A DNA stretch of 43,289 nucleotides from assembly GCA_018606805.1 (NCBI GenBank), contig JAGYWI010000020.1, positions 1 through 43,289 on the forward strand, written 5' to 3'. This document shows, in pieces, positions 19,887-29,682 of this stretch. The DNA comes from Candidatus Magnetomicrobium cryptolimnococcus (GTDB lineage: Bacteria; Nitrospirota; Thermodesulfovibrionia; Thermodesulfovibrionales; Magnetobacteriaceae). Positions within the stretch are counted from its first letter, which is position 1, and each line of letters begins with the position of its first letter. Both the position numbers and the translations under genes were made by a program. The notes beneath the pieces are model-generated. The model was given only the letters and a program-made list of their open reading frames with translations. It was not told the origin of the DNA and ran no database searches.

Positions 19887-21392
19887 TTAATCCTGATGAC
19901 CGTTATCGGACATTGTTTGGATAAAATTATTTATGTAAAAGATTATCTCTGTTGAAAGCTCTGTGAATTGACATCCAAACAATAAATAATCGTATGTTTC
20001 GCTTATATTTTTTATATTAAACTGTAAATTTTCAATAGTTTTATCTAATATTCTAAACGTCAGATAGTAATCTTTATTTATGCTATACCCTTTATAGTTG
20101 GCTTTGGGTAATTTTAACATGCAGCCTGCTGTACTTATATTTATTATGATAACTTCTGTTGTAGTTATGTGTTCCATATCAAATATGATAGCAAGTATAT
20201 TGGCTTGGAATCTGTTTTCTTTTCTTTTTAGTGTTTTTTGCCTTTTAAAAATACCGTAGCCCCACAGTTGATGACGATTGATTGCAACGTAGAATCGTTC
20301 AGAGGGTATGACCTCAACGATATTATATGCGTTATCTGAGGTATCTCTGCGAAGTGGTATCATAGAACGATAGCCGTTTGAACGCACAACAATGTGCACG
20401 ATAGGCGTATACACTTTATTGCCGCGCTGGGTTACAACCCCCAGCTCGTTACTTTTAAGTTTAACGTATGACCCGGGCGGGTATATCCCCAGGTTTTTGA
20501 CAAAGATATTAGCTAACTCTATTTCTGAGATTTTTTCACCTTCAAGGAATATCTGTCTTATTGCTGCATCTGGCAGTAGTGGAGGGCGATAATCTCTACC
20601 GCTAACCCTTGCACAATAAATATCAGCCATTTTGATAACCCGCGCAGGCTGCAATATAGCATCCCCTTGCAATCCAAAAGGATAGCCGCTTCCGTCGGCT
20701 GATTCATGATGCTGAAGGACTGATTCTAACCATATTTCATCCTTGATGCCATATTTGCGCAAGATTTCTAATCCTTTTTCAGGGTGTAAGTGTACTATTT
20801 TTTGTTGATTTTCGCTTAACTGTTCTTCTTGTTTTAAAAGTAAATCCTGCAGCTCTATCATACCTATATTCATAGTTATGGCAGCGCATATTGTGGACAA
20901 TCTTATCTCTTGGTTCCACCCGAGGGATTTGCCTATTATTTCACACACTATTGCTGTTTGCAGCGAATGTTTTACGGAGTAGCGTGTATTGTGGCTCATC
21001 ATAATAGTGCCAAGACACAGGTCCTCATCTTCTACGCATACTCTTTGGATAGTTTTCGCTATATTTACAAATTTAGGCTCAAACTCTGTCAGATTATTAA
21101 TATTATGAAAATAGTTATCCAGTTGTAAAAGGGCAAAGTCTATCAAGTCAAAAGGCGAATCCTCAGCTTCTACTACTACTTCTTCGGCCGATGGCTCTGT
21201 TGGTATGTTTTTATTATTTTCCCCTATTCCTTCTATTTCTAGGGAGTTTAAAATCTTCATCCGGTCTACATCTTTAAAGACAAAGCCTTTATTTAGCATA
21301 AGCTCACCGTGGTCATCCACCACAGGCTCTGTTATAGGCTCACCTACATTGATTTTCTGTTCCTTTATGCGTCTTGGTCTCATTTTTTCCAA
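19887..21392 (-). CDS. HD-GYP domain protein with C-terminal PilZ domain (c-di-GMP phosphodiesterase/receptor fusion)
   Basis: A HHESADGSGYPFGL GYP motif is present. The second HD-type metal-binding motif appears replaced (AITMNIGM where HDIGK is expected). C-terminal RKENR...NISTAGCML matches the PilZ RxxxR...(D/N)xSxxG motifs. Confidence 0.7.
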   Translation of the reverse strand: MEKMRPRRIKEQKINVGEPITEPVVDDHGELMLNKGFVFKDVDRMKILNSLEIEGIGENNKNIPTEPSAEEVVVEAEDSPFDLIDFALLQLDNYFHNINNLTEFEPKFVNIAKTIQRVCVEDEDLCLGTIMMSHNTRYSVKHSLQTAIVCEIIGKSLGWNQEIRLSTICAAITMNIGMIELQDLLLKQEEQLSENQQKIVHLHPEKGLEILRKYGIKDEIWLESVLQHHESADGSGYPFGLQGDAILQPARVIKMADIYCARVSGRDYRPPLLPDAAIRQIFLEGEKISEIELANIFVKNLGIYPPGSYVKLKSNELGVVTQRGNKVYTPIVHIVVRSNGYRSMIPLRRDTSDNAYNIVEVIPSERFYVAINRHQLWGYGIFKRQKTLKRKENRFQANILAIIFDMEHITTTEVIIINISTAGCMLKLPKANYKGYSINKDYYLTFRILDKTIENLQFNIKNISETYDYLLFGCQFTELSTEIIFYINNFIQTMSDNGHQD

Positions 21393-21407: not shown

Positions 21408-22376
21408 TTAGGCATTTATTGCTGACTTTATTTCATCATCGAGGGTAATTTTATTACCACCGCCTTTTTTACTAATCTCCATCAACTGTTGAGCACGACT
21501 TCTTAGTTGAAATATAGTTTCCTTCTTTTTAGCAAGCGTTGCACCTATGGAAACAAATATTGGCACAGCCCTTTCGTTTACTTTATATTTACATGTTTCA
21601 GCTATTCTTCTTGAGCGCTCAGCTATTATTGGCAGCGTATCTTCATTGACATTTGCAAGTATCATTGTAAATTCCGACTCATCCCATCTGCTTATTGTAT
21701 CGTAGGGTCTTACGCTTTCAGCTAAGGCCCCAGCGACTATTTTTATTATACTATTTCCATGCACTTTACCGATAGTTGACGATATTCTTTCTATATGATC
21801 TATGCTAAGAAATATGAGACCAAAAGGCCATCCATACCTCATCCACTCATTAAATCTCGCCTTTAAATTTATCTCCGCATACTTCCTATTTCCAAGCTCT
21901 GTTAGAGGGTCTATCAAATTAAGGCTACGCAGTTTTGTAAACTGTCGCTCAAGTTTTATCTTTTCTGCATTTTCAATAAAAACAGCAATAGCCCCTAATC
22001 GCTGCCCTTTGTCGTCTTCTACAGGATTCACTTTTAGTATAACTGGGACTTTTTTCTTTTCCTTATTGTATAAAAACACTTCCTCTGTTTCTGGTACGCC
22101 ACTTAGCATCACCTTACTTATTAAATCATCACCATTACTTACATTTATACCCATTCCATCGGCATATCGTATAATCCCACTAAAATAATCCTTTCCAACC
22201 ACGTCAGATATATCATACCCTACTAGCTTTTCGGCTTCTTTATTCCAGTATCGTATAATCATCTGCTTATCAACAAACAGTACTGCTTGCAGTTGACTAT
22301 CAATCAATAGTTTATAAAAATTATTTTCCTCTATGTTATCCATATTCATCATCTTCCTACTTAACACACAACACAC
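21408..22376 (-). CDS. PAS-GGDEF-like protein with a degenerate active site (SRWDESEF in place of GGDEF)
   Basis: N-terminal PAS-like fold. The GGDEF-domain scaffold is conserved (DPLTELGNRKY, Ploop-like region) but the signature reads RWDESEF. Confidence 0.65.
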   Translation of the reverse strand: MCCVLSRKMMNMDNIEENNFYKLLIDSQLQAVLFVDKQMIIRYWNKEAEKLVGYDISDVVGKDYFSGIIRYADGMGINVSNGDDLISKVMLSGVPETEEVFLYNKEKKKVPVILKVNPVEDDKGQRLGAIAVFIENAEKIKLERQFTKLRSLNLIDPLTELGNRKYAEINLKARFNEWMRYGWPFGLIFLSIDHIERISSTIGKVHGNSIIKIVAGALAESVRPYDTISRWDESEFTMILANVNEDTLPIIAERSRRIAETCKYKVNERAVPIFVSIGATLAKKKETIFQLRSRAQQLMEISKKGGGNKITLDDEIKSAINA

Positions 22377-22696: not shown

Positions 22697-25600
22697 TTAC
22701 TTAATCTCTATCTTACTTTGAGCAGTTGTAAACTGCACATTGATAACTACTAATCCTATATCAATAATAGCTTTAGGGTCAGTTGCAAGAGACGATATTT
22801 TATTCGAGTCTACAAAGCCAGTAGCATGATATTTACCGTTTGAACAGTTAATATCTGATTTATTAGTAACCAACCCCACATCTACTAACGTACCATCGGA
22901 GTTTTCAAGAAGAAGTTTAGTTGTAACATTCATGGTATTACCCGTACAATCAATACCTGTAACGTCAGCCTTAATCTGTGTTTCACCATTTTTGAAGACC
23001 ACATGTGCTTTTATGTCAGACATAGCACTTTCTTTTTGTACCTCAGCCTGTGCGTTAGCATCAGCAGCAGCATCTGTATCTGTTTTTACATCAGATTCCG
23101 AAGGGGTATCGTCAAAGTTTATTTTAAATTTAGATATAGTAAATGGATTGTTATTTGGTTTACCTGTATCTGTCCCTGTTGTAAAACCAAATTTGATTGT
23201 AGACATAGTGTCATAGTGCATATAAAAACACTTATCTATAAAAGGTGATTCATCTAAATAATCTGTTGACAACTTGTTACTATCTGGCGCGTCAATCCAT
23301 ACCTTATATTCAGCATAGTTTCCAGCACCGGTATCGCAATTACTACATGTATTGCCACCATCTGGGCTTGCACACCCTGTATGAAGTTCTATCCTAACTG
23401 TGTGCAAGTTGGCATCTTCAAGCCATATAGGTCCAGTAGTACCATTTTTATGGCAACACCCTGACCAACAAGTATAGTTCCCGCTATCAGCCGTTGGTGG
23501 ACAAAGTGGATTTGCAGGCAGCGATATAACTGTATGGTTATTATTACCATTAAAAACCATTGCCACATGATTTTTTTCTAAACCATAGTACTGTGATGAC
23601 TCATAATAAAAATCCTTTGTCCCAGAATCTGGATACATATCAAATTCCAAACCCAAACTGTATCCACCTATATTATTACCTACACTATTATTCTTCCTAC
23701 CATAACCAAGGCCATTACCAGGTCCTCCACAAGTGCTCACTGCCCTTTCGCCCTCAATCATAGCAAATACAAAACCACCTTTATAGTCTGTGCTATTTAA
23801 GCTGCTATCACCATCATCGGATTCATCGTCGTCATCGGACTTTTTGTCTTTATCGCTTTTATCTTTATCGGAGTCCTTATCGTCATCATCGTCATGCTCC
23901 GATAATTTGCTTTTATCTTTATCAGTCTTGTTTTTGTCATCATCGTCATCATCGTCATGCTCTGATAATTTGCTTTTATCTTTATCAGTTTTGTTTTTGT
24001 CATCATCGTCATCGGATTTTTTGTCTTTATCGCTTTTATCCTTATCGGAGTCCTTATCGTCGTCATCGTCATGCTCCGATAATTTGCTTTTATCCTTATC
24101 AGTCTTGTTTTTGTCATCATCATCGTCATCGGACTTTTTGTCTTTATCGCTTTTATCCTTATCAGTTTTGTTTTTGTCATCATCGTCATCATCGGATTTT
24201 TTGTCTTTATCGCTTTTATCCTTATCGGAGTCCTTATCGTCGTCATCGTCATGCTCCGATAATTTGCTTTTATCCTTATCAGTCTTGTTTTTGTCATCAT
24301 CATCGTCATCATCGGACTTTTTGTCTTTATCGCTTTTATCCTTATCAGTCTTGTTTTTGTCATCATCGTCATCATCGGATTTTTTGTCTTTATCGCTTTT
24401 ATCTTTATCGGAGTCCTTGTCGTCGTCATCGTCATGTTCTGATAATTTGCTTTTATCTTTATCAGTCTTGTTTTTGTCGTCATCGTCATCGTCGGATTTT
24501 TTGTCTTTATCGCTTTTATCTTTATCGGAGTCCTTGTCGTCGTCATCGTCATGTTCTGATAATTTGCTTTTATCTTTATCAGTCTTGTTTTTGTCGTCAT
24601 CGTCATCGTCGGATTTTTTGTCTTTATCGCTTTTATCTTTATCGGAGTCCTTGTCGTCATCATCGTCATGCTCCGATAATTTGCTTTTATCTTTATCAGT
24701 TTTGTTTTTGTCATCATCATCGTCATCATCGGACTTTTTGTCTTTATCGCTTTTATCCTTATCGGAGTCCTTATCGTCGTCATCGTCATGCTCCGATAAT
24801 TTGCTTTTATCCTTATCAGTCTTGTTTTTGTCATCATCATCGTCATCATCGGACTTTTTGTCTTTATCGCTTTTATCTTTATCGGAGTCCTTATCGTCAT
24901 CATCGTCATGCTCCGATAATTTGCTTTTATCTTTATCAGTCTTGTTTTTGTCATCATCGTCATCATCGGACTTTTTGTCTTTATCGCTTTTATCTTTATC
25001 GGAGTCCTTATCATCGTCATCGTCATGCTCCGATAATTTGCTTTTATCTTTATCAGTCTTGTTTTTGTCATCATCGTCATCATCGGACTTTTTGTCTTTA
25101 TCGCTTTTATCTTTATCGGAGTCCTTATCGTCATCATCGTCATGCTCCGATAATTTGCTTTTATCTTTATCAGTTTTGTTTTTGTCATCATCGTCATCAT
25201 CGGACTTTTTGTCTTTATCGCTTTTATCTTTATCGGAGTCCTTATCGTCATCATCGTCATGCTCCGATAATTTGCTTTTATCTTTATCAGTCTTGTTCTT
25301 GTCATCATCATCATCATCGGATTTTTTGTCTTTATCGCTTTTATCTTTATCGGAGTCCTTATCATCGTCATCATCGGTCGTATCTTTACCATTTTTATCA
25401 GAATCCTTATCTTTGCTATCTTTACCGGCTTTATCAGAATCATCATCGGACATTGTATTTTTCAGAAATTTATCAAAATCATCATCACTGTCTGAATCAT
25501 TATCATCTTTACTGCTATCATTACTTTTTGTTTCACTTTCGGCATAAGCCGCCTGCATCTCAAAATATATCCTTGTAGTTTTATCTTTTATCGGACATGA

Positions 25601-26707
25601 AGTTGCTGAACACGGTGAAACAGTATTTTGTCCATCTGGAAACCACACACATCCCCACAAATCATTTGCGTTGACACTCTGCTCAGTTGATTCCTCACCA
25701 ACCTTTAAAGTTTTAGAACTAGTATCTTTCGTTATAGCCGAACTATAACCTTCATATTCTGCAAAATGCTCAAGCGCTTCATCAAAAGAAATCTCCGAAT
25801 CATTAGAACCACCATCATCATCACCTCCCCCCTCACTACAATTAGTGTTCACTGCAAGGGATAGTGTCCTTTTAGCGGTATTTGCTATTGGCGAGTCGCT
25901 ATCCATCACCATCAGTGTAACTTGCGTTGATGGAGCCGTTGCCGCAGAAGCGGAGCCTAACTGCACGTTGGCATATGGCGTTGACCACGTTGGACAAGTA
26001 GTAGAAGGCATTACTGATAACCAGCTCGGTACAGAACCTTCTATACACCATTTATAATTAGTCTCATTAAATGGCACACCACCTTCGGCGTAAATAATAG
26101 CTGCATAATTCGTACTGCCGACACAAACGCTTGGTAGCTCATTATTTAATATTATGAGTTTTCCTCTTGTTTTACCATAACAACCTATTTTTTGCTGCAA
26201 ATCCTGCAGGCTCAAATATTGATACACATCACTGGTACTTAGGCTTACAGTTGTAAATGAGGTAATACCTTGTTCCGAAGCAGATGAGATATTTGTAGAA
26301 TTTAGCGCCGTATCCTCCCCTTTACTTATAATGGCGACAGCTACGGCTTTACTTTCCCCTGATACGGATAAGACCGTATTACTGTTTCCACAAATGTTAT
26401 TCGTGGATGCAAGCTCATTTGCATATACATATATTAGGGGTTGATTATATTTATCGTTTTTTACAATAATGGAAGTTGGCAGCTTCTTATTTTCAGTTGC
26501 ATAACTTATAATATAATTAATATTATCTCCAATAACGTCTGAGGTAGCAGTTATAACCCCTTTTTTCGTTTTTGGTGTAACCGACATAAGCCCTATGCTT
26601 GTTACAACAATCAAAAGCCCTAACGCTACAATTAAACCTATGCTGCCGGCTCTATTTGTAATATAACTTTCCATATGTTTTATTTTTTTATAGTAATTTA
26701 TAAGCAT
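22697..26707 (-). CDS. Giant modular pilin-like adhesin (1336 aa): N-terminal TM helix + pilin-paralogue module, ~530-aa poly-acidic D/K/S tandem-repeat stalk, L-type (legume-like) lectin domain, C-terminal beta domain
   Basis: The first ~300 aa are clearly paralogous to the adjacent 309-aa pilin (IISYATENKKLPTS / IIGYTAQNKRLPTS; STNNICG; KIGCYGKTRGKLIILNNELP...STNYAAIIYAEGG / QIGCSGEPLRIINNELP...GTNYNAAIYVEGG; YKWCIEGS / YKWCLDTS). The lectin block GGFVFAMIEGE...GGYSLGLEFDMYPDSG...KNHVAMVFNGNNNH...IKFGFTTGTDTG matches the legume-lectin signatures (GGxLGLF; VAVEFDTxxN...DP..HIGIDVNS; VGFSATTG). Confidence 0.8.
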   Translation of the reverse strand: MLINYYKKIKHMESYITNRAGSIGLIVALGLLIVVTSIGLMSVTPKTKKGVITATSDVIGDNINYIISYATENKKLPTSIIVKNDKYNQPLIYVYANELASTNNICGNSNTVLSVSGESKAVAVAIISKGEDTALNSTNISSASEQGITSFTTVSLSTSDVYQYLSLQDLQQKIGCYGKTRGKLIILNNELPSVCVGSTNYAAIIYAEGGVPFNETNYKWCIEGSVPSWLSVMPSTTCPTWSTPYANVQLGSASAATAPSTQVTLMVMDSDSPIANTAKRTLSLAVNTNCSEGGGDDDGGSNDSEISFDEALEHFAEYEGYSSAITKDTSSKTLKVGEESTEQSVNANDLWGCVWFPDGQNTVSPCSATSCPIKDKTTRIYFEMQAAYAESETKSNDSSKDDNDSDSDDDFDKFLKNTMSDDDSDKAGKDSKDKDSDKNGKDTTDDDDDKDSDKDKSDKDKKSDDDDDDKNKTDKDKSKLSEHDDDDDKDSDKDKSDKDKKSDDDDDDKNKTDKDKSKLSEHDDDDDKDSDKDKSDKDKKSDDDDDDKNKTDKDKSKLSEHDDDDDKDSDKDKSDKDKKSDDDDDDKNKTDKDKSKLSEHDDDDDKDSDKDKSDKDKKSDDDDDDDKNKTDKDKSKLSEHDDDDDKDSDKDKSDKDKKSDDDDDDDKNKTDKDKSKLSEHDDDDDKDSDKDKSDKDKKSDDDDDDKNKTDKDKSKLSEHDDDDDKDSDKDKSDKDKKSDDDDDDKNKTDKDKSKLSEHDDDDDKDSDKDKSDKDKKSDDDDDDKNKTDKDKSDKDKKSDDDDDDDKNKTDKDKSKLSEHDDDDDKDSDKDKSDKDKKSDDDDDDKNKTDKDKSDKDKKSDDDDDDKNKTDKDKSKLSEHDDDDDKDSDKDKSDKDKKSDDDDDKNKTDKDKSKLSEHDDDDDDDKNKTDKDKSKLSEHDDDDDKDSDKDKSDKDKKSDDDDESDDGDSSLNSTDYKGGFVFAMIEGERAVSTCGGPGNGLGYGRKNNSVGNNIGGYSLGLEFDMYPDSGTKDFYYESSQYYGLEKNHVAMVFNGNNNHTVISLPANPLCPPTADSGNYTCWSGCCHKNGTTGPIWLEDANLHTVRIELHTGCASPDGGNTCSNCDTGAGNYAEYKVWIDAPDSNKLSTDYLDESPFIDKCFYMHYDTMSTIKFGFTTGTDTGKPNNNPFTISKFKINFDDTPSESDVKTDTDAAADANAQAEVQKESAMSDIKAHVVFKNGETQIKADVTGIDCTGNTMNVTTKLLLENSDGTLVDVGLVTNKSDINCSNGKYHATGFVDSNKISSLATDPKAIIDIGLVVINVQFTTAQSKIEIK
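23800..25400. repeat. Intragenic near-perfect tandem repeat, ~13 units of 117 bp (39 aa: KDSDKDKSDKDKKSDDDDDDKNKTDKDKSKLSEHDDDDD) with shorter 63-bp variants
   Basis: Units are nearly identical at the nucleotide level (gataatttgcttttatctttatcagtcttgtttttgtcatcatcgtcatc... recurs). The repeat generates long stop-free artefactual ORFs in other frames. Confidence 0.9.
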
Positions 26708-26732
26708 AAAATATATTACCTCCTATTATAGT

Positions 26733-27662
26733 CTATGTAGGATTAAGGGTAAGTACAAACGTTTTTTCCGAGCAGTTACCATCACCATCTCTGACAAAAA
26801 CCTTTATTCTATAAGAGCCTGTTTGTGAATTACTTGAGCCAGCTCCTATTATCTGTACATTACTTGCACTTGCCCACGTAGTGTCAACCGATGATGAGCA
26901 GTTGGCCGGCACTACACAGCCGGGTGTTGGGTCTGTATAGCCACCCGGATAATTTGAAGTATCCAAACACCACTTATACATAGAAGTGTTTGAACCGCCT
27001 TCAACGTATATGGCGGCATTATAATTAGTTCCAGCATACCCATACGGTAGCTCATTATTTATAATGCGTAGCGGCTCACCAGAACAGCCTATTTGTGTCC
27101 TTAGCTCTCCAAGTGTTGTCCATATTACGATGTCATCATACGTAGTATCACCTATTTTTTCATTCTTATACACCATAATAGGGCTACTTGATGTATTTGT
27201 TTCAAGTATATAATCGCTGCCATTACTTGCAGCAAGGAAGGCTATGTTTTTTATATCAACATAATCAACGTTAGCAGTGCCAGAGGCACAGTTTGAGTTA
27301 TCTATACAACTGCGCACCGTTACAGACGTTGTCTTTCTACCGCATATGTTATTTGTGCTTCCAAGCGTGCTATCAATCAAATAAAGCAGATTTTGGTTCC
27401 ACCCATCTATCGCCTTTGTAACTACCCCTTTAAATTCGCTTGAAGTGGGTAATCTTTTGTTTTGTGCCGTATAACCAATAACAGACTCACGTGCAGCATC
27501 TACGATATTTTTGGTTTTATTGACATTTTGCATATCTATTAGAGGGCCTAATAGATTAGCCCCCATGCCAAGGATAATACCAACGATGACCAACACAACG
27601 GCCATTTCTATCAGGGTTAAACCGTCTTGTAAACGCAACACTACTTTGCCTTGCTTAAACAT
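26733..27662 (-). CDS. Type IV pilin-like protein (309 aa) with class III signal peptide
   Basis: The N-terminus LQDG-LTLIEMAVVLVIVGIILGMG is a prepilin cleavage/methylation motif (G|xTLIE with Glu at +5). A long globular domain with several Cys pairs follows. It is paralogous to the N-terminal third of the downstream giant protein. Confidence 0.8.
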   Translation of the reverse strand: MFKQGKVVLRLQDGLTLIEMAVVLVIVGIILGMGANLLGPLIDMQNVNKTKNIVDAARESVIGYTAQNKRLPTSSEFKGVVTKAIDGWNQNLLYLIDSTLGSTNNICGRKTTSVTVRSCIDNSNCASGTANVDYVDIKNIAFLAASNGSDYILETNTSSSPIMVYKNEKIGDTTYDDIVIWTTLGELRTQIGCSGEPLRIINNELPYGYAGTNYNAAIYVEGGSNTSMYKWCLDTSNYPGGYTDPTPGCVVPANCSSSVDTTWASASNVQIIGAGSSNSQTGSYRIKVFVRDGDGNCSEKTFVLTLNPT

Positions 27663-27743
27663 TTAGTCCCCCCCCAGTGACACTTAAATATATACACTTA
27701 TAAAATAGAATAAAAAAATATTAAAAATCAAGCAGTCAACAAA

Positions 27744-27798
27744 CAATTTTTAGGCAATTTTTAGGCAATTTTTAGGCAATTTTTAGGCAATTTTTAGG
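27744..27798. repeat. Perfect tandem repeat, 5 x 11 bp (CAATTTTTAGG)
   Basis: 27744-27798 lies ~80 bp upstream of the 309-aa pilin start. It sits between the small pilin gene and the pilin-lectin pair. Confidence 0.9.
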
Positions 27799-27813
27799 AT
27801 AACTTCGGGGTTG

Positions 27814-27837
27814 AGGGGAGCCTCATAGGTCTCCCCC
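27814..27837 (-). terminator. REP-type hairpin (GGGGAGCC-TCAT-AGGTCTCCCC) immediately 3-prime of the small pilin gene; probable terminator
   Basis: It lies 28 nt after the 27865 stop. It belongs to the same family as the GGGAGCCCCCATGAGGCTCCC hairpins beside gyrA. Confidence 0.4.
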
Positions 27838-27864
27838 TACGCAGTTTTACTGATTATCTTATTG

Positions 27865-28440
27865 TTACCACACCCTTACAGAGGCATCCCGGTTTGAGCC
27901 AGTTAATCCATTACACACGGCTGCGTTACCGGCGGCATCAGTATAGTCATCATTGCCTGGAGTCGCTCCATCGCCTCGTACGTAACCCGTTGTGTTATAA
28001 CCGTCATCAAGGGTTATGTCAAGAATACATAAGGTTTGATCTATGCCGTTATCAGTGTGCACACATTTCATACCAGAGCTTGTACTATATGTGTCTTCTG
28101 TATAGCCGGAGTTTGAGCTACCTGTACAATTTTGTAATGCCCACGTTGTGCCATCTGAAAATGTGAAATCATTTGAAGAAACACCACCTTCTGTAACCAA
28201 TGCTGATTGACTGGCTGGTAATGAGCTGTATTTGGCATAATACGACGCCACAGCAGTTTGGATTTTATTAATTCTTTGTATATCAGCCTTCTTATTCGAT
28301 GTATCTATTAGCGATATACCTTTTACTGCCATACCAATAATTATTCCTATAACAACGAGCGCTATTGCAAGTTCAATCAACGTAAAACCACTACTTTTTG
28401 TAATTTGCATCCGATGCAAATACACACTAATCTTTTTCAT
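27865..28440 (-). CDS. Type IV pilin / pseudopilin (191 aa), candidate major subunit
   Basis: KSSG-FTLIELAIALVVIGIIIGMAVKG is a canonical prepilin peptidase motif (G|FTLIE). It is followed by a small Ser/Thr/Gly-rich globular domain with two Cys near the C-terminus (a D-region-like disulfide). Confidence 0.8.
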   Translation of the reverse strand: MKKISVYLHRMQITKSSGFTLIELAIALVVIGIIIGMAVKGISLIDTSNKKADIQRINKIQTAVASYYAKYSSLPASQSALVTEGGVSSNDFTFSDGTTWALQNCTGSSNSGYTEDTYSTSSGMKCVHTDNGIDQTLCILDITLDDGYNTTGYVRGDGATPGNDDYTDAAGNAAVCNGLTGSNRDASVRVW

Positions 28441-28638
28441 ATAAATTACCCCCCTTTCTTTCTATAGTTTATAACTTATAACCATAATCAGTACACTATT
28501 TTATAAAAAAATTTTAAAATAGTCAAAATATTTTTTATAGAAAACACCACTTTTATAGTTGAACTACTACTATTAATGCTCATAATAGCATATAATGTTA
28601 TATTTGATTGTACCAGATAAAAACAAGGATATAAACCA

Positions 28639-29682
28639 ATGAGCCTTTTAACCGAAGTACTTACAAAGATACAAGCAAGACATCCGAAACAAAAAGACGT
28701 GCACCCTGAACTAGTATCTATGCAAAAAGAGCGCAGAAAACGAAAGGCTCTTTATAAAAAAGCACTTATGCTTTCAGTCGGCTTGGTCATATTTGTGTTA
28801 TCAGGCCTCTTTGGGCTTTACTACTTAGGAAACTACAAACAAAAACTAATTGATAGCAACATAAAATTAAAACAGAACTTTGAACAGATACCAGTCCTCG
28901 ATAAAGCAACCACAGCTATACCAACCGTTGCTGCTGTTGCCCAGAACGAGCAACCACAATACATACAGGATTTTACACAATTTCAAAAAGAAACTATACA
29001 AGAAACTCCCATCTCACCAACCCCAACTTATAATAAAATAGAAACCAAACAGTTAGACCATCAAACAGCTGTGGCTGCAAAAAACAATACACAAGTAAAA
29101 ACAATCACAACAAATGAACCAAATAAACCACCTGCTAAAGATAAACAAACCTCAGACGATAAAAAAGCACCTGCCACCCAAAACACTATAGAACGAACAC
29201 CCGACAACACCGTCTTGACTCAGATTGAAATAGATAATCGAATTTACAGGGGGGAAGACTACGAAAAAAATAATCTGTTTAACGAAGCGGTTCATGAATA
29301 CGAGATAGCCTTTTCATTAGACACAAATAACTATAGGATTTTAAATAAACTTGTCTATTGTAATATGAAAGCAGGTAATTATAAAAAGGCCATTAATTAT
29401 GCCGAAACAGCCATTAAACTAAACAATGCCTACATACCACTACTTATAAACCTTGCTATTTCCTATGCGTCAGTGAAAAGATACGAGGAGGCAGAAAATA
29501 CATTTAAAATGGCCGTTGAAACCTCCCCCGGTAATTTAGATTTGCTTTATAATTTTGCCCTATTTTATGAAAAAATAAATAAGCCCAATAAAGCCCTTGA
29601 GATATACGAAACCCTATCAAAACAAGGCGATGCACGCGGACAACAAGGAATATTAAGAATTACATATACCCAAACAAATTAG
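28639..29682 (+). CDS. TPR-repeat protein with N-terminal membrane anchor and Pro/Thr/Gln-rich linker; divergent from the pilin gene
   Basis: It has a TM segment (ALMLSVGLVIFVLSGLFGLYYLG), a low-complexity linker, and C-terminal TPR-like helices (YEKNNLFNEAVHEYEIAFSLD...AINYAETAIKLN...). Confidence 0.55.
   Translation: MSLLTEVLTKIQARHPKQKDVHPELVSMQKERRKRKALYKKALMLSVGLVIFVLSGLFGLYYLGNYKQKLIDSNIKLKQNFEQIPVLDKATTAIPTVAAVAQNEQPQYIQDFTQFQKETIQETPISPTPTYNKIETKQLDHQTAVAAKNNTQVKTITTNEPNKPPAKDKQTSDDKKAPATQNTIERTPDNTVLTQIEIDNRIYRGEDYEKNNLFNEAVHEYEIAFSLDTNNYRILNKLVYCNMKAGNYKKAINYAETAIKLNNAYIPLLINLAISYASVKRYEEAENTFKMAVETSPGNLDLLYNFALFYEKINKPNKALEIYETLSKQGDARGQQGILRITYTQTN

Follow-up and report, generated by a model that had tools for sequence, protein, structure and literature searches.

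The window analysed here, a 43-kb stretch of DNA (43,289 nucleotides; contig JAGYWI010000020.1 of Candidatus Magnetomicrobium cryptolimnococcus), contains a type IV pilin locus of three successive minus-strand genes, the third of which encodes a product of 1336 amino acids (aa) that we call the giant protein; the products of the first two are referred to as p191 and p309 after their lengths. The giant protein consists of a pilin module, an Ig-like domain, an L-type lectin fold and a small C-terminal domain, in that order, and its lectin fold is interrupted by a highly charged insert of 574 residues. It is probably a pilus-tip adhesin, yet no ordinary sugar-binding lectin. The overall reading that we favour, with a probability of roughly 55%, is that p191, p309 and the giant protein are type IV filament subunits, the giant protein being a tip-capping adhesin with a remodelled lectin face.

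Three pilin genes and the modules of the giant protein

The three open reading frames (ORFs) follow one another at 27865–28440 (191 aa), 26733–27662 (309 aa) and 22697–26707 (1336 aa), as a sequence-only reading of the window had described them. All three have a good, G-rich Shine–Dalgarno sequence upstream, and the 4-kb reading frame of the giant gene is intact. The genes and the modules of the giant protein are listed below; here and later the slash separates the leader from the mature N-terminus, P0001 is an orthologue described in the next section and ConA is concanavalin A.

27865..28440, minus strand: p191, canonical prepilin, leader KSSG/FTLIE; PF07963 28.2 bits (cut-off 21.2), TIGR02532 24.1 bits (cut-off 16.3)
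26733..27662, minus strand: p309, canonical prepilin, LQDG/LTLIE; above the curated cut-offs of PF07963 (N_methyl) and TIGR02532
26645..26707, minus strand: leader of the giant protein, residues 1–21, hydrophilic with a Gly end (ITNRAG/); mature N-terminus SIGLI
26192..26644, minus strand: α1 helix plus β-sheet pilin head, residues about 22–172, assigned from the P0001 AlphaFold model and p309 paralogy
25838..26170, minus strand: Ig-like β-sandwich (He_PIG-like), residues about 180–290, assigned from strands 201–287 of the P0001 model and He_PIG matches in the family
25532..25804, minus strand: N-terminal strands of the lectin fold, residues about 302–392 (SEISFDEAL...WGCVWFPDG...TRIYFEMQAAY), aligning to P0001 300–398; predicted local distance difference test (pLDDT) 85–95 in the model of the window protein
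23810..25531, minus strand: D/K/S-rich repeat, residues 393–966 (574 aa), 39-aa units, in the loop before the ConA Asp208 position
23096..23809, minus strand: remainder of the lectin fold, residues about 967–1204, with the metal-site motif LEFDMYPDSGTKD...NH and the C-terminal strands IKFGFTTGT...FTISKF
22700..23095, minus strand: C-terminal extra domain, residues about 1205–1336 (~130 aa), an Ala/Asp-rich linker helix plus a small β-rich module

The scores of p191 and p309 confirm the earlier view that both are prepilins (G/FTLIE and G/LTLIE). A class III-type leader, hydrophilic and ending in Gly, is followed by about 20 hydrophobic residues in all three proteins (KSSG/FTLIELAIALVVIGIIIG, LQDG/LTLIEMAVVLVIVGIILG and NRAG/SIGLIVALGLLIVVTSIG). 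The N-terminus of the giant protein (MLINYYKKIKHMESYITNRAG/SIGLIVALGLLIVVTSIGLMSV) has Gly(−1), a hydrophobic stretch and Ile, not Glu, at position +5 (NRAG/SIGLIVALGLLIVV), so that the statement that Glu(+5) is missing was correct; the pilin-type N-terminus also attributed to this protein holds as regards the leader with its Gly and the hydrophobic stretch, and is otherwise degenerate, with no match to pilin models. The first ~300 residues had been called a paralogue of p309, and the alignment bears this out (32% identity over residues 23–287 of the giant protein, E 9e-28). In p309 a pilin head is followed by a He_PIG-type Ig-like domain, its own He_PIG match being weak (E 0.017), and p309 itself is a modular pilin (pilin plus Ig) that would serve as a minor pilin. 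Size, first position and a separate hairpin make p191 the likely major pilin here. The giant protein is also cysteine-rich (20 cysteines), and its last ~130 residues, overlooked in the sequence-only reading, form a domain modelled with moderate confidence (pLDDT 52–78) that is absent from P0001 and for which no Pfam match and no homologue were found.

An orthologue and a family of pilin–Ig–lectin proteins

A k-mer-indexed search with the C-terminal third of the giant protein returned a single protein, P0001 (630 aa), which is 60% identical to the repeat-deleted giant protein and lacks both the repeat and the last ~130 residues. The gene order on its contig (L001) is that of the window: a 193-aa pilin, a 309-aa pilin, the 630-aa protein, PAS-GGDEF, HD-GYP-PilZ and TusA-DsrE. 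Gly(−1) is kept in P0001 and the residue at +5 is Val, so that this protein is without Glu5 too. Its AlphaFold model (mean pLDDT 84 and predicted template modelling score 0.62 overall) has a helix at residues 22–73 (52 residues) and strands at 92–165, with pLDDT mostly above 90.

The k-mer-indexed homologue searches gave 1, 3 and 10 proteins only, and the family was seen by an exhaustive HMMER search with P0001, which found 256 representative clusters (50% identity) at E ≤ 0.001. Among the best 150 of these 256 the pilin module is present in 145 and the C-terminal lectin domain also in at least 33. When a profile of the pilin module was compared with the PDB it matched type IV pilins through the α1 helix (PilE 5e-6, geopilin, PilA and MshA), and 11 of 32 family members have He_PIG matches in the C-terminal third of this module (best E 3.8e-12). 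Among the lectin-bearing members the close relatives mostly have the N-terminus G/(M or I)(A or T)LL(N or P), and those with the canonical G/FTLIE are mostly more distant. The pilin–Ig–lectin family is highly modular and occurs in Nitrospirota and one Desulfohalobiaceae metagenome-assembled genome (MAG). Scanning with the orthologue pair found nothing in genome contigs and one partial locus in metagenomes. Long extensions after the lectin, with He_PIG-type Ig motifs or Kelch-like (YLYVIGG) repeats and total lengths of up to 1245 aa, were observed in P0012, P0024, P0037, P0009, P0020, P0022 and P0039.

The lectin fold, its insert and its sugar site

The sequence-only reading had recognized a legume-lectin-like domain, resting on motifs (GGYSLGLEFDMYPDSG, KNHVAMVFNGNNN and IKFGFTTGTDTG) that lie at residues about 1014–1180, and had proposed L-type and ConA-like models as the check. 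With the protein alone this check finds nothing: the giant protein (whole, in five pieces or repeat-deleted) and P0001 had no Pfam match at E ≤ 10, PF00139 and PF18483 included, phmmer against the PDB was likewise empty, and NCBIfam models did not match the giant protein either. As single-sequence models match nothing, a judgement by sequence models alone would wrongly have discarded the lectin. The relatives and the structure give a different answer. PF00139 (Lectin_legB) matches 16 of 24 relatives (best E 1.5e-10) and PF18483 matches 13 of the 24 (best E 8.9e-12), and a profile of the 24 family domains matches 7elv (3.8e-12), pea lectin (6e-8) and peanut lectin (2e-7) in the PDB; domain-only sequences were aligned for this work, since a full-length alignment scattered the pilin modules of the relatives over the repeat. 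Foldseek comparison of the P0001 β-sandwich returned legume lectins or lectin-like proteins (arcelins) as 48 of the top 50 matches, the other two being chains of the SraP adhesin, and the nearest solved structure is 7exo, a mannose-bound archaeal legume-lectin domain. Both lectin halves of the window protein were modelled with pLDDT 70–95 (model of residues 290–1336). The domain has the legume-lectin β-sandwich fold, and the giant protein carries an L-type lectin as regards fold and homology.

The acidic stalk of more than 500 residues proposed earlier exists as a region of 574 residues, not as a spacer between pilin and lectin: residues 302–392 match continuous lectin sequence of P0001 and so belong to the same domain as residues 967–1204, which means that the repeat interrupts the lectin fold. 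It lies between TRIYFEMQAAYA and DYKGGFVFAMIEG of the giant protein, where P0001 runs on uninterrupted (...TRVYFDMITDFVDGHAQSKDYKGGFTFAFIEG), and this position is the loop just before ConA 208, on the ligand-binding face. The insert is absent from P0001 and from all 150 representatives. Tandem Repeats Finder (TRF) describes it as 12.1 copies of a 117-nt period (unit DDDDDKDSDKDKSDKDKKSDDDDDDKNKTDKDKSKLSEH) with in-frame length variants. With 46% Asp, 27% Lys, 13% Ser and a net charge of −120 it is a polyampholyte and not purely acidic, and it is predicted to be disordered (pLDDT ~40, no secondary structure). A single α-helix or a collagen-like stalk was considered for this region and rejected, as the model has no secondary structure there. 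The five full 117-nt units, delimited by a conserved LSEH motif, are 93–99% identical to one another, and all nine sites that vary between them (9/9) are third-position synonymous, whereas synonymous changes make up 13.7% of the possible single changes. This excess argues that the repeat peptide is maintained by selection rather than being a product of neutral slippage, that is, the nucleotide pattern indicates purifying selection on the peptide.

For the sugar site the giant domain and ConA were both aligned to the family hidden Markov model (HMM), and residues are given in ConA numbering; the ConA sequence used is consistent with the ConA range in the match of the family profile to the PDB. 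We take Glu8, Asp10, Asp19 and His24 as the Ca/Mn ligands, with Tyr12 as a Ca ligand through its backbone, and Asn14 and Asp208 as the monosaccharide site. The giant protein retains E8, D10, Y12, D19 and H24, and the four metal ligands Glu8, Asp10, Asp19 and His24 are invariant in all 24 sequences. Both sugar-site residues are changed in the giant protein, P0001 and P0003 (N14D and D208G), while about 10 of 24 relatives retain Asp and Asn together. In pea lectin the Asn-to-Asp change abolishes sugar binding. With Asp and Asn replaced and the insert on the ligand-binding face, classical monosaccharide binding appears doubtful for the giant protein; in roughly half the family such binding is plausible. 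The proposal of a glycan-binding pilus adhesin is thus backed by the L-type fold and the metal ligands and undercut by the replacement of ConA Asp208 and Asn14.

Machinery and cyclic di-GMP context

Several relatives of the giant gene lie beside pilus machinery. At the locus of P0143 (contigs L004 and L005) the order is pilin, lectin pilin, pilin, an AAA+/peptidoglycan-binding ATPase, a PilB/GspE-type ATPase, a GspF/PilC platform protein, three unknowns, a secretin and a TPR protein. The P0143-adjacent ATPase has the MshE cyclic di-GMP (c-di-GMP) motif (NF053729, 57.5 bits against a cut-off of 38), and the best match of the adjacent secretin is MshL at 238.6 bits, below the cut-off of 250.2 (GspD 143). 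In the Desulfohalobiaceae MAG (contig L003) a platform protein, a secretin, a TPR protein, a 191-aa pilin and a 219-aa pilin accompany the lectin pilin, and a secretin, a TPR protein and a p309-like pilin occur together on contig L002. Another Nitrospirota genome carries a 333-aa p309-like pilin and a 569-aa Lectin_legB protein away from machinery, as in the window.

In both orthologous loci the genes for PAS-GGDEF and HD-GYP-PilZ proteins are syntenic with the pilin genes. As MshE-type ATPases are c-di-GMP receptors, control of the filament by c-di-GMP is a reasonable inference by analogy; the neighbouring c-di-GMP genes might then act on the MSHA-like machine that assembly of the filament would require and that would have to be encoded elsewhere.

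Weighing the explanations

Absence of Glu5 in a protein as bulky as this one most likely means that it is the first subunit to join the filament and so comes to cap the tip, and on the favoured reading the giant protein, once its leader has been processed, would do so and serve as the adhesive head of the filament. K subunits without Glu5 cap the tips of type IV filaments (PMC9934059), a tip position is also proposed for the modular pilins of Streptococcus sanguinis, and a survey of modular pilins expects such bulky proteins there (PMC8179133). The parallel is one of function only: the giant protein may work like K at the tip, which is not to say that it is K. Since the metal ligands are kept, Asp and Asn are lost and a charged insert sits at the site, the ligand-binding face of the lectin fold appears to have been remodelled. 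Binding would use the metal site and the long charged tether, in a cation-bridged or electrostatic manner or through a non-canonical glycan site, and probably relies on these, not on a classical monosaccharide pocket.

Several points weigh against this reading. The N-terminus of the giant protein matches none of the Pfam and NCBIfam pilin HMMs, and the protein matches neither of the K-type models T2SSK and PilX_N. The window has no gene for a prepilin peptidase, an ATPase, a platform protein or a secretin, nor is there an H-I-J-K-type operon at the locus, where only p191 and p309 precede the giant gene. The copy number of the repeat was read from a metagenome assembly, and the giant gene is the point at which the other public MAG is broken. 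The loss of Asp and Asn was judged through the ConA alignment and would be compatible with a sugar site of a non-canonical kind.

A simpler reading, which we consider unlikely, is that the lectin of the giant protein binds glycans in the classical legume-lectin manner as part of an adhesin on the pilus, with a repeat that does no more than extend its reach. The L-type fold is established and its metal ligands are intact, the nearest structure (7exo) is mannose-bound, the adhesins SraP, YwfG and Aap share the fold, the Asp and Asn pair persists in about 10 of 24 relatives, and PilC of Streptococcus sanguinis is a pilin-borne lectin that does bind glycans (PMC9934059). In the giant protein and P0001, however, ConA 208 is Gly and ConA 14 is Asp, and the repeat, instead of separating modules as a spacer, forms a loop within the fold on its binding face. 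We think it rather improbable that the three proteins are instead pseudopilins of a filament that resembles a type II secretion system (T2SS) or of another non-pilus, periplasmic filament, with the giant protein as a GspK-like tip touching cargo or the secretin. Such a filament would fit the NCBI name 'GspH family' for p191 and p309, the weak N-terminal similarities to GspG and GspH, the near-equal scores of the ATPase and platform of the relatives as GspE/GspF and as PilB/PilC, and the missing Glu5, which is a hallmark of GspK (PMC9934059). Against this, the secretin of the relatives is closer to MshL than to GspD (238.6 versus 143 bits), their ATPase has an MshE-type motif, and no equivalents of GspC, GspL or GspM were recognized. 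A 1336-aa subunit with an Ig domain, a lectin and a 574-aa charged loop also seems ill-suited to a short periplasmic pseudopilus. The extensions in the family are moreover Ig-like (He_PIG-type) and Kelch-like, and domains of these types are usual in surface adhesins.

Decay is very improbable in our view. The giant gene would on this account be a decaying or non-assembled p309 paralogue, its product anchored in the inner membrane and its repeat the outcome of neutral slippage, which would agree with an N-terminus that fails all pilin HMMs, an insert unique among 150 representatives and the loss of the sugar-site residues. It is hard to reconcile with an unbroken 4-kb frame, with a Glu5-less N-terminus with Gly(−1) that is conserved in the 60%-identical P0001 and typical of most close relatives, with metal ligands that are invariant family-wide, with variable sites between units that are synonymous in nine cases out of nine, and with the conservation of a pair of p309-like and lectin pilin genes in another Nitrospirota genome.

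Other features of the window

Further features in and around the pilin locus are as follows.

27814..27837, minus strand: GC-rich hairpin 3′ of p191, GGGGGAG.CCU...AGGCUCCCC, without a T-run; region −19.8 kcal/mol, z −1.6
27744..27798, minus strand: 11-nt tandem repeat CCTAAAAATTG, five exact copies (TRF, 100% matches), in the p191–p309 spacer upstream of p309
28639..29682, plus strand: divergent membrane-anchored TPR protein, with TPR matches and weak PilW/Tgl-type similarity
21408..22376, minus strand: PAS-GGDEF protein (Pfam), immediately downstream of the giant gene; GGDEF signature degenerate, RWDESEF
19887..21392, minus strand: HD-GYP phosphodiesterase fused to PilZ (Pfam HD_5, HD and PilZ), the next gene downstream

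The p191 gene has promoter-like hexamers of its own at 28526–28498. A hairpin terminator had been claimed after this gene; the hairpin exists, and its assignment as a terminator was rejected, as it has no T-run, was not called by the terminator scan and has a z of only −1.6. On L001 a canonical intrinsic terminator (GGAGAGAG...CTTTCTCC, then TTTTTT) was observed at 700–760, directly 3′ of the major-pilin gene; its equivalent in the window is the one without a T-run. The CCTAAAAATTG array, with a chance expectation of zero matches, has no counterpart in the orthologous spacer of L001. It may represent curved DNA, or else an element with a regulatory or phase-variable role. Each of its units contains an A5 tract, with a phasing of about one helical turn.

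Exact look-up identified p191 as MCI4625734.1 and the neighbouring TPR protein as MCI4625735.1, both of Candidatus Magnetoovum sp. WYHC-5, which assigns the window to this uncultured magnetotactic member of the Nitrospirota. The similarity between this TPR protein and the TPR protein beside the secretin on L003 is not significant (E 1.2), and we do not claim it as the TPR component of the machinery. The WYHC-5 MAG (GCA_022760095.1; contig JAKKUN010000061.1, 15.7 kb, L006) begins within p309 (partial, 267 aa) and the giant gene is missing there, which probably illustrates how repeats can fragment MAG assemblies and so conceal genes for large adhesins.

Scans for Rfam families and tRNAs gave no match in the window, and the rest of it is ordinary chromosome (gyrA, parAB, kdsB, pyrG, glgA, era, recO and two-component systems). 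At 14620–17082 on the plus strand lies a gene for an 820-aa protein like the major vault protein (PF11978 shoulder, 1e-25; PF17795 vault repeat) that is labelled 'hypothetical' in Candidatus Magnetoovum (MCI4626455.1 cluster). The region at 10.3–13.3 kb is of low GC (about 0.34–0.35) with few ORFs, and contains a fragment-like 147-aa FG-GAP/tectonin-like ORF (12553–12996, plus strand), a DUF29 gene and a 176-aa minus-strand ORF.

Known systems and biological meaning

The closest described counterpart in architecture is PilC of S. sanguinis, which shares with the giant protein the order of pilin, Ig-like fold and ConA-like sandwich lectin, is a proposed tip adhesin and is encoded next to pilin genes (PMC9934059). 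It differs in having a canonical Glu5 and a galectin-like lectin, which belongs to the ConA-like superfamily and is not L-type, in coming from a monoderm, and in having neither a domain insertion nor a C-terminal extra domain; PilC was not among the PDB matches of the family profiles, that is, no sequence similarity was seen. With the K-type subunits GspK, PilX and PilK the giant protein shares the lack of Glu5, the bulk and the supposed role of entering first and capping, but its globular part is Ig plus lectin, there are no H-I-J partners nearby and no K-family model matches it. From other L-type lectins (those of legumes, the Methanocaldococcus jannaschii domain of 7exo and 7elv, and SraP, YwfG and Aap) it is set apart by N14D, D208G, its 20 cysteines, the 574-aa disordered insert and a fusion partner that is a pilin rather than an LPXTG or serine-rich-repeat adhesin. 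The neighbours of the relatives recall the MSHA system (MshE, MshG, MshL and MshN): their secretin is MshL-like, their ATPase has the MshE motif, and genes for a platform protein and a TPR protein lie there too. The window is without ATPase, platform and secretin, and its pilins have no specific similarity to MshA–D or MshO–Q.

Lectin-type modules on pilins are already established, and the sequence-only reading, which regarded such a fusion as uncharacterised in a diderm-like organism, overstated the novelty. The survey cited above counts over 1,200 modular pilins across diderms and monoderms, with PF13385 among the commonest modules, and shows those with lectin-type modules to be widespread in both groups (PMC8179133), and an L-type-lectin-like minor pilin, PilX1, has been predicted in Saccharibacteria TM7x (PMC11623550). 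The PF13385 modular pilins and the PF18483–PilY1 fusions (PMC8179133) and TM7x PilX1 (PMC11623550) share with the giant protein a β-sandwich module of carbohydrate-binding type on a component of the pilus tip. The modules of the first are LamG-type and those of the second are L-type on PilY1, which is not a pilin, and both are thus unlike the arrangement of pilin, Ig and L-type lectin described here, a family that we did not find in the accessible part of the survey supplement (PMC8179133). What is new is a sizeable environmental family of pilin–Ig–L-type lectin proteins, many of them without Glu5, and, in this Magnetoovum member, a selected disordered insert of 574 residues in the sugar-site loop of a lectin that has also lost its canonical sugar residues.

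Modular pilins account for the way in which simple type IV filaments acquire new functions, and to our knowledge nearly all those studied by experiment belong to a single Gram-positive species. The Glu5-less members of the present family are a concrete candidate for a pilin combining the roles of capping subunit and adhesin, and the giant protein offers a natural test of whether a scaffold can be repurposed from glycan to charge-based binding. A bolder form of our reading, to which we give a low probability, is that the lectin scaffold at the pilus tip no longer reads sugars and instead holds the selected 574-residue polyampholyte for multivalent electrostatic or cation-bridged attachment to cations, minerals or cells. 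If so, a disordered loop inserted in a folded domain would be the working part of this pilus adhesin, and the tether would attach a magnetotactic Nitrospirota cell to such surfaces as iron or calcium phases at the oxic–anoxic boundary.

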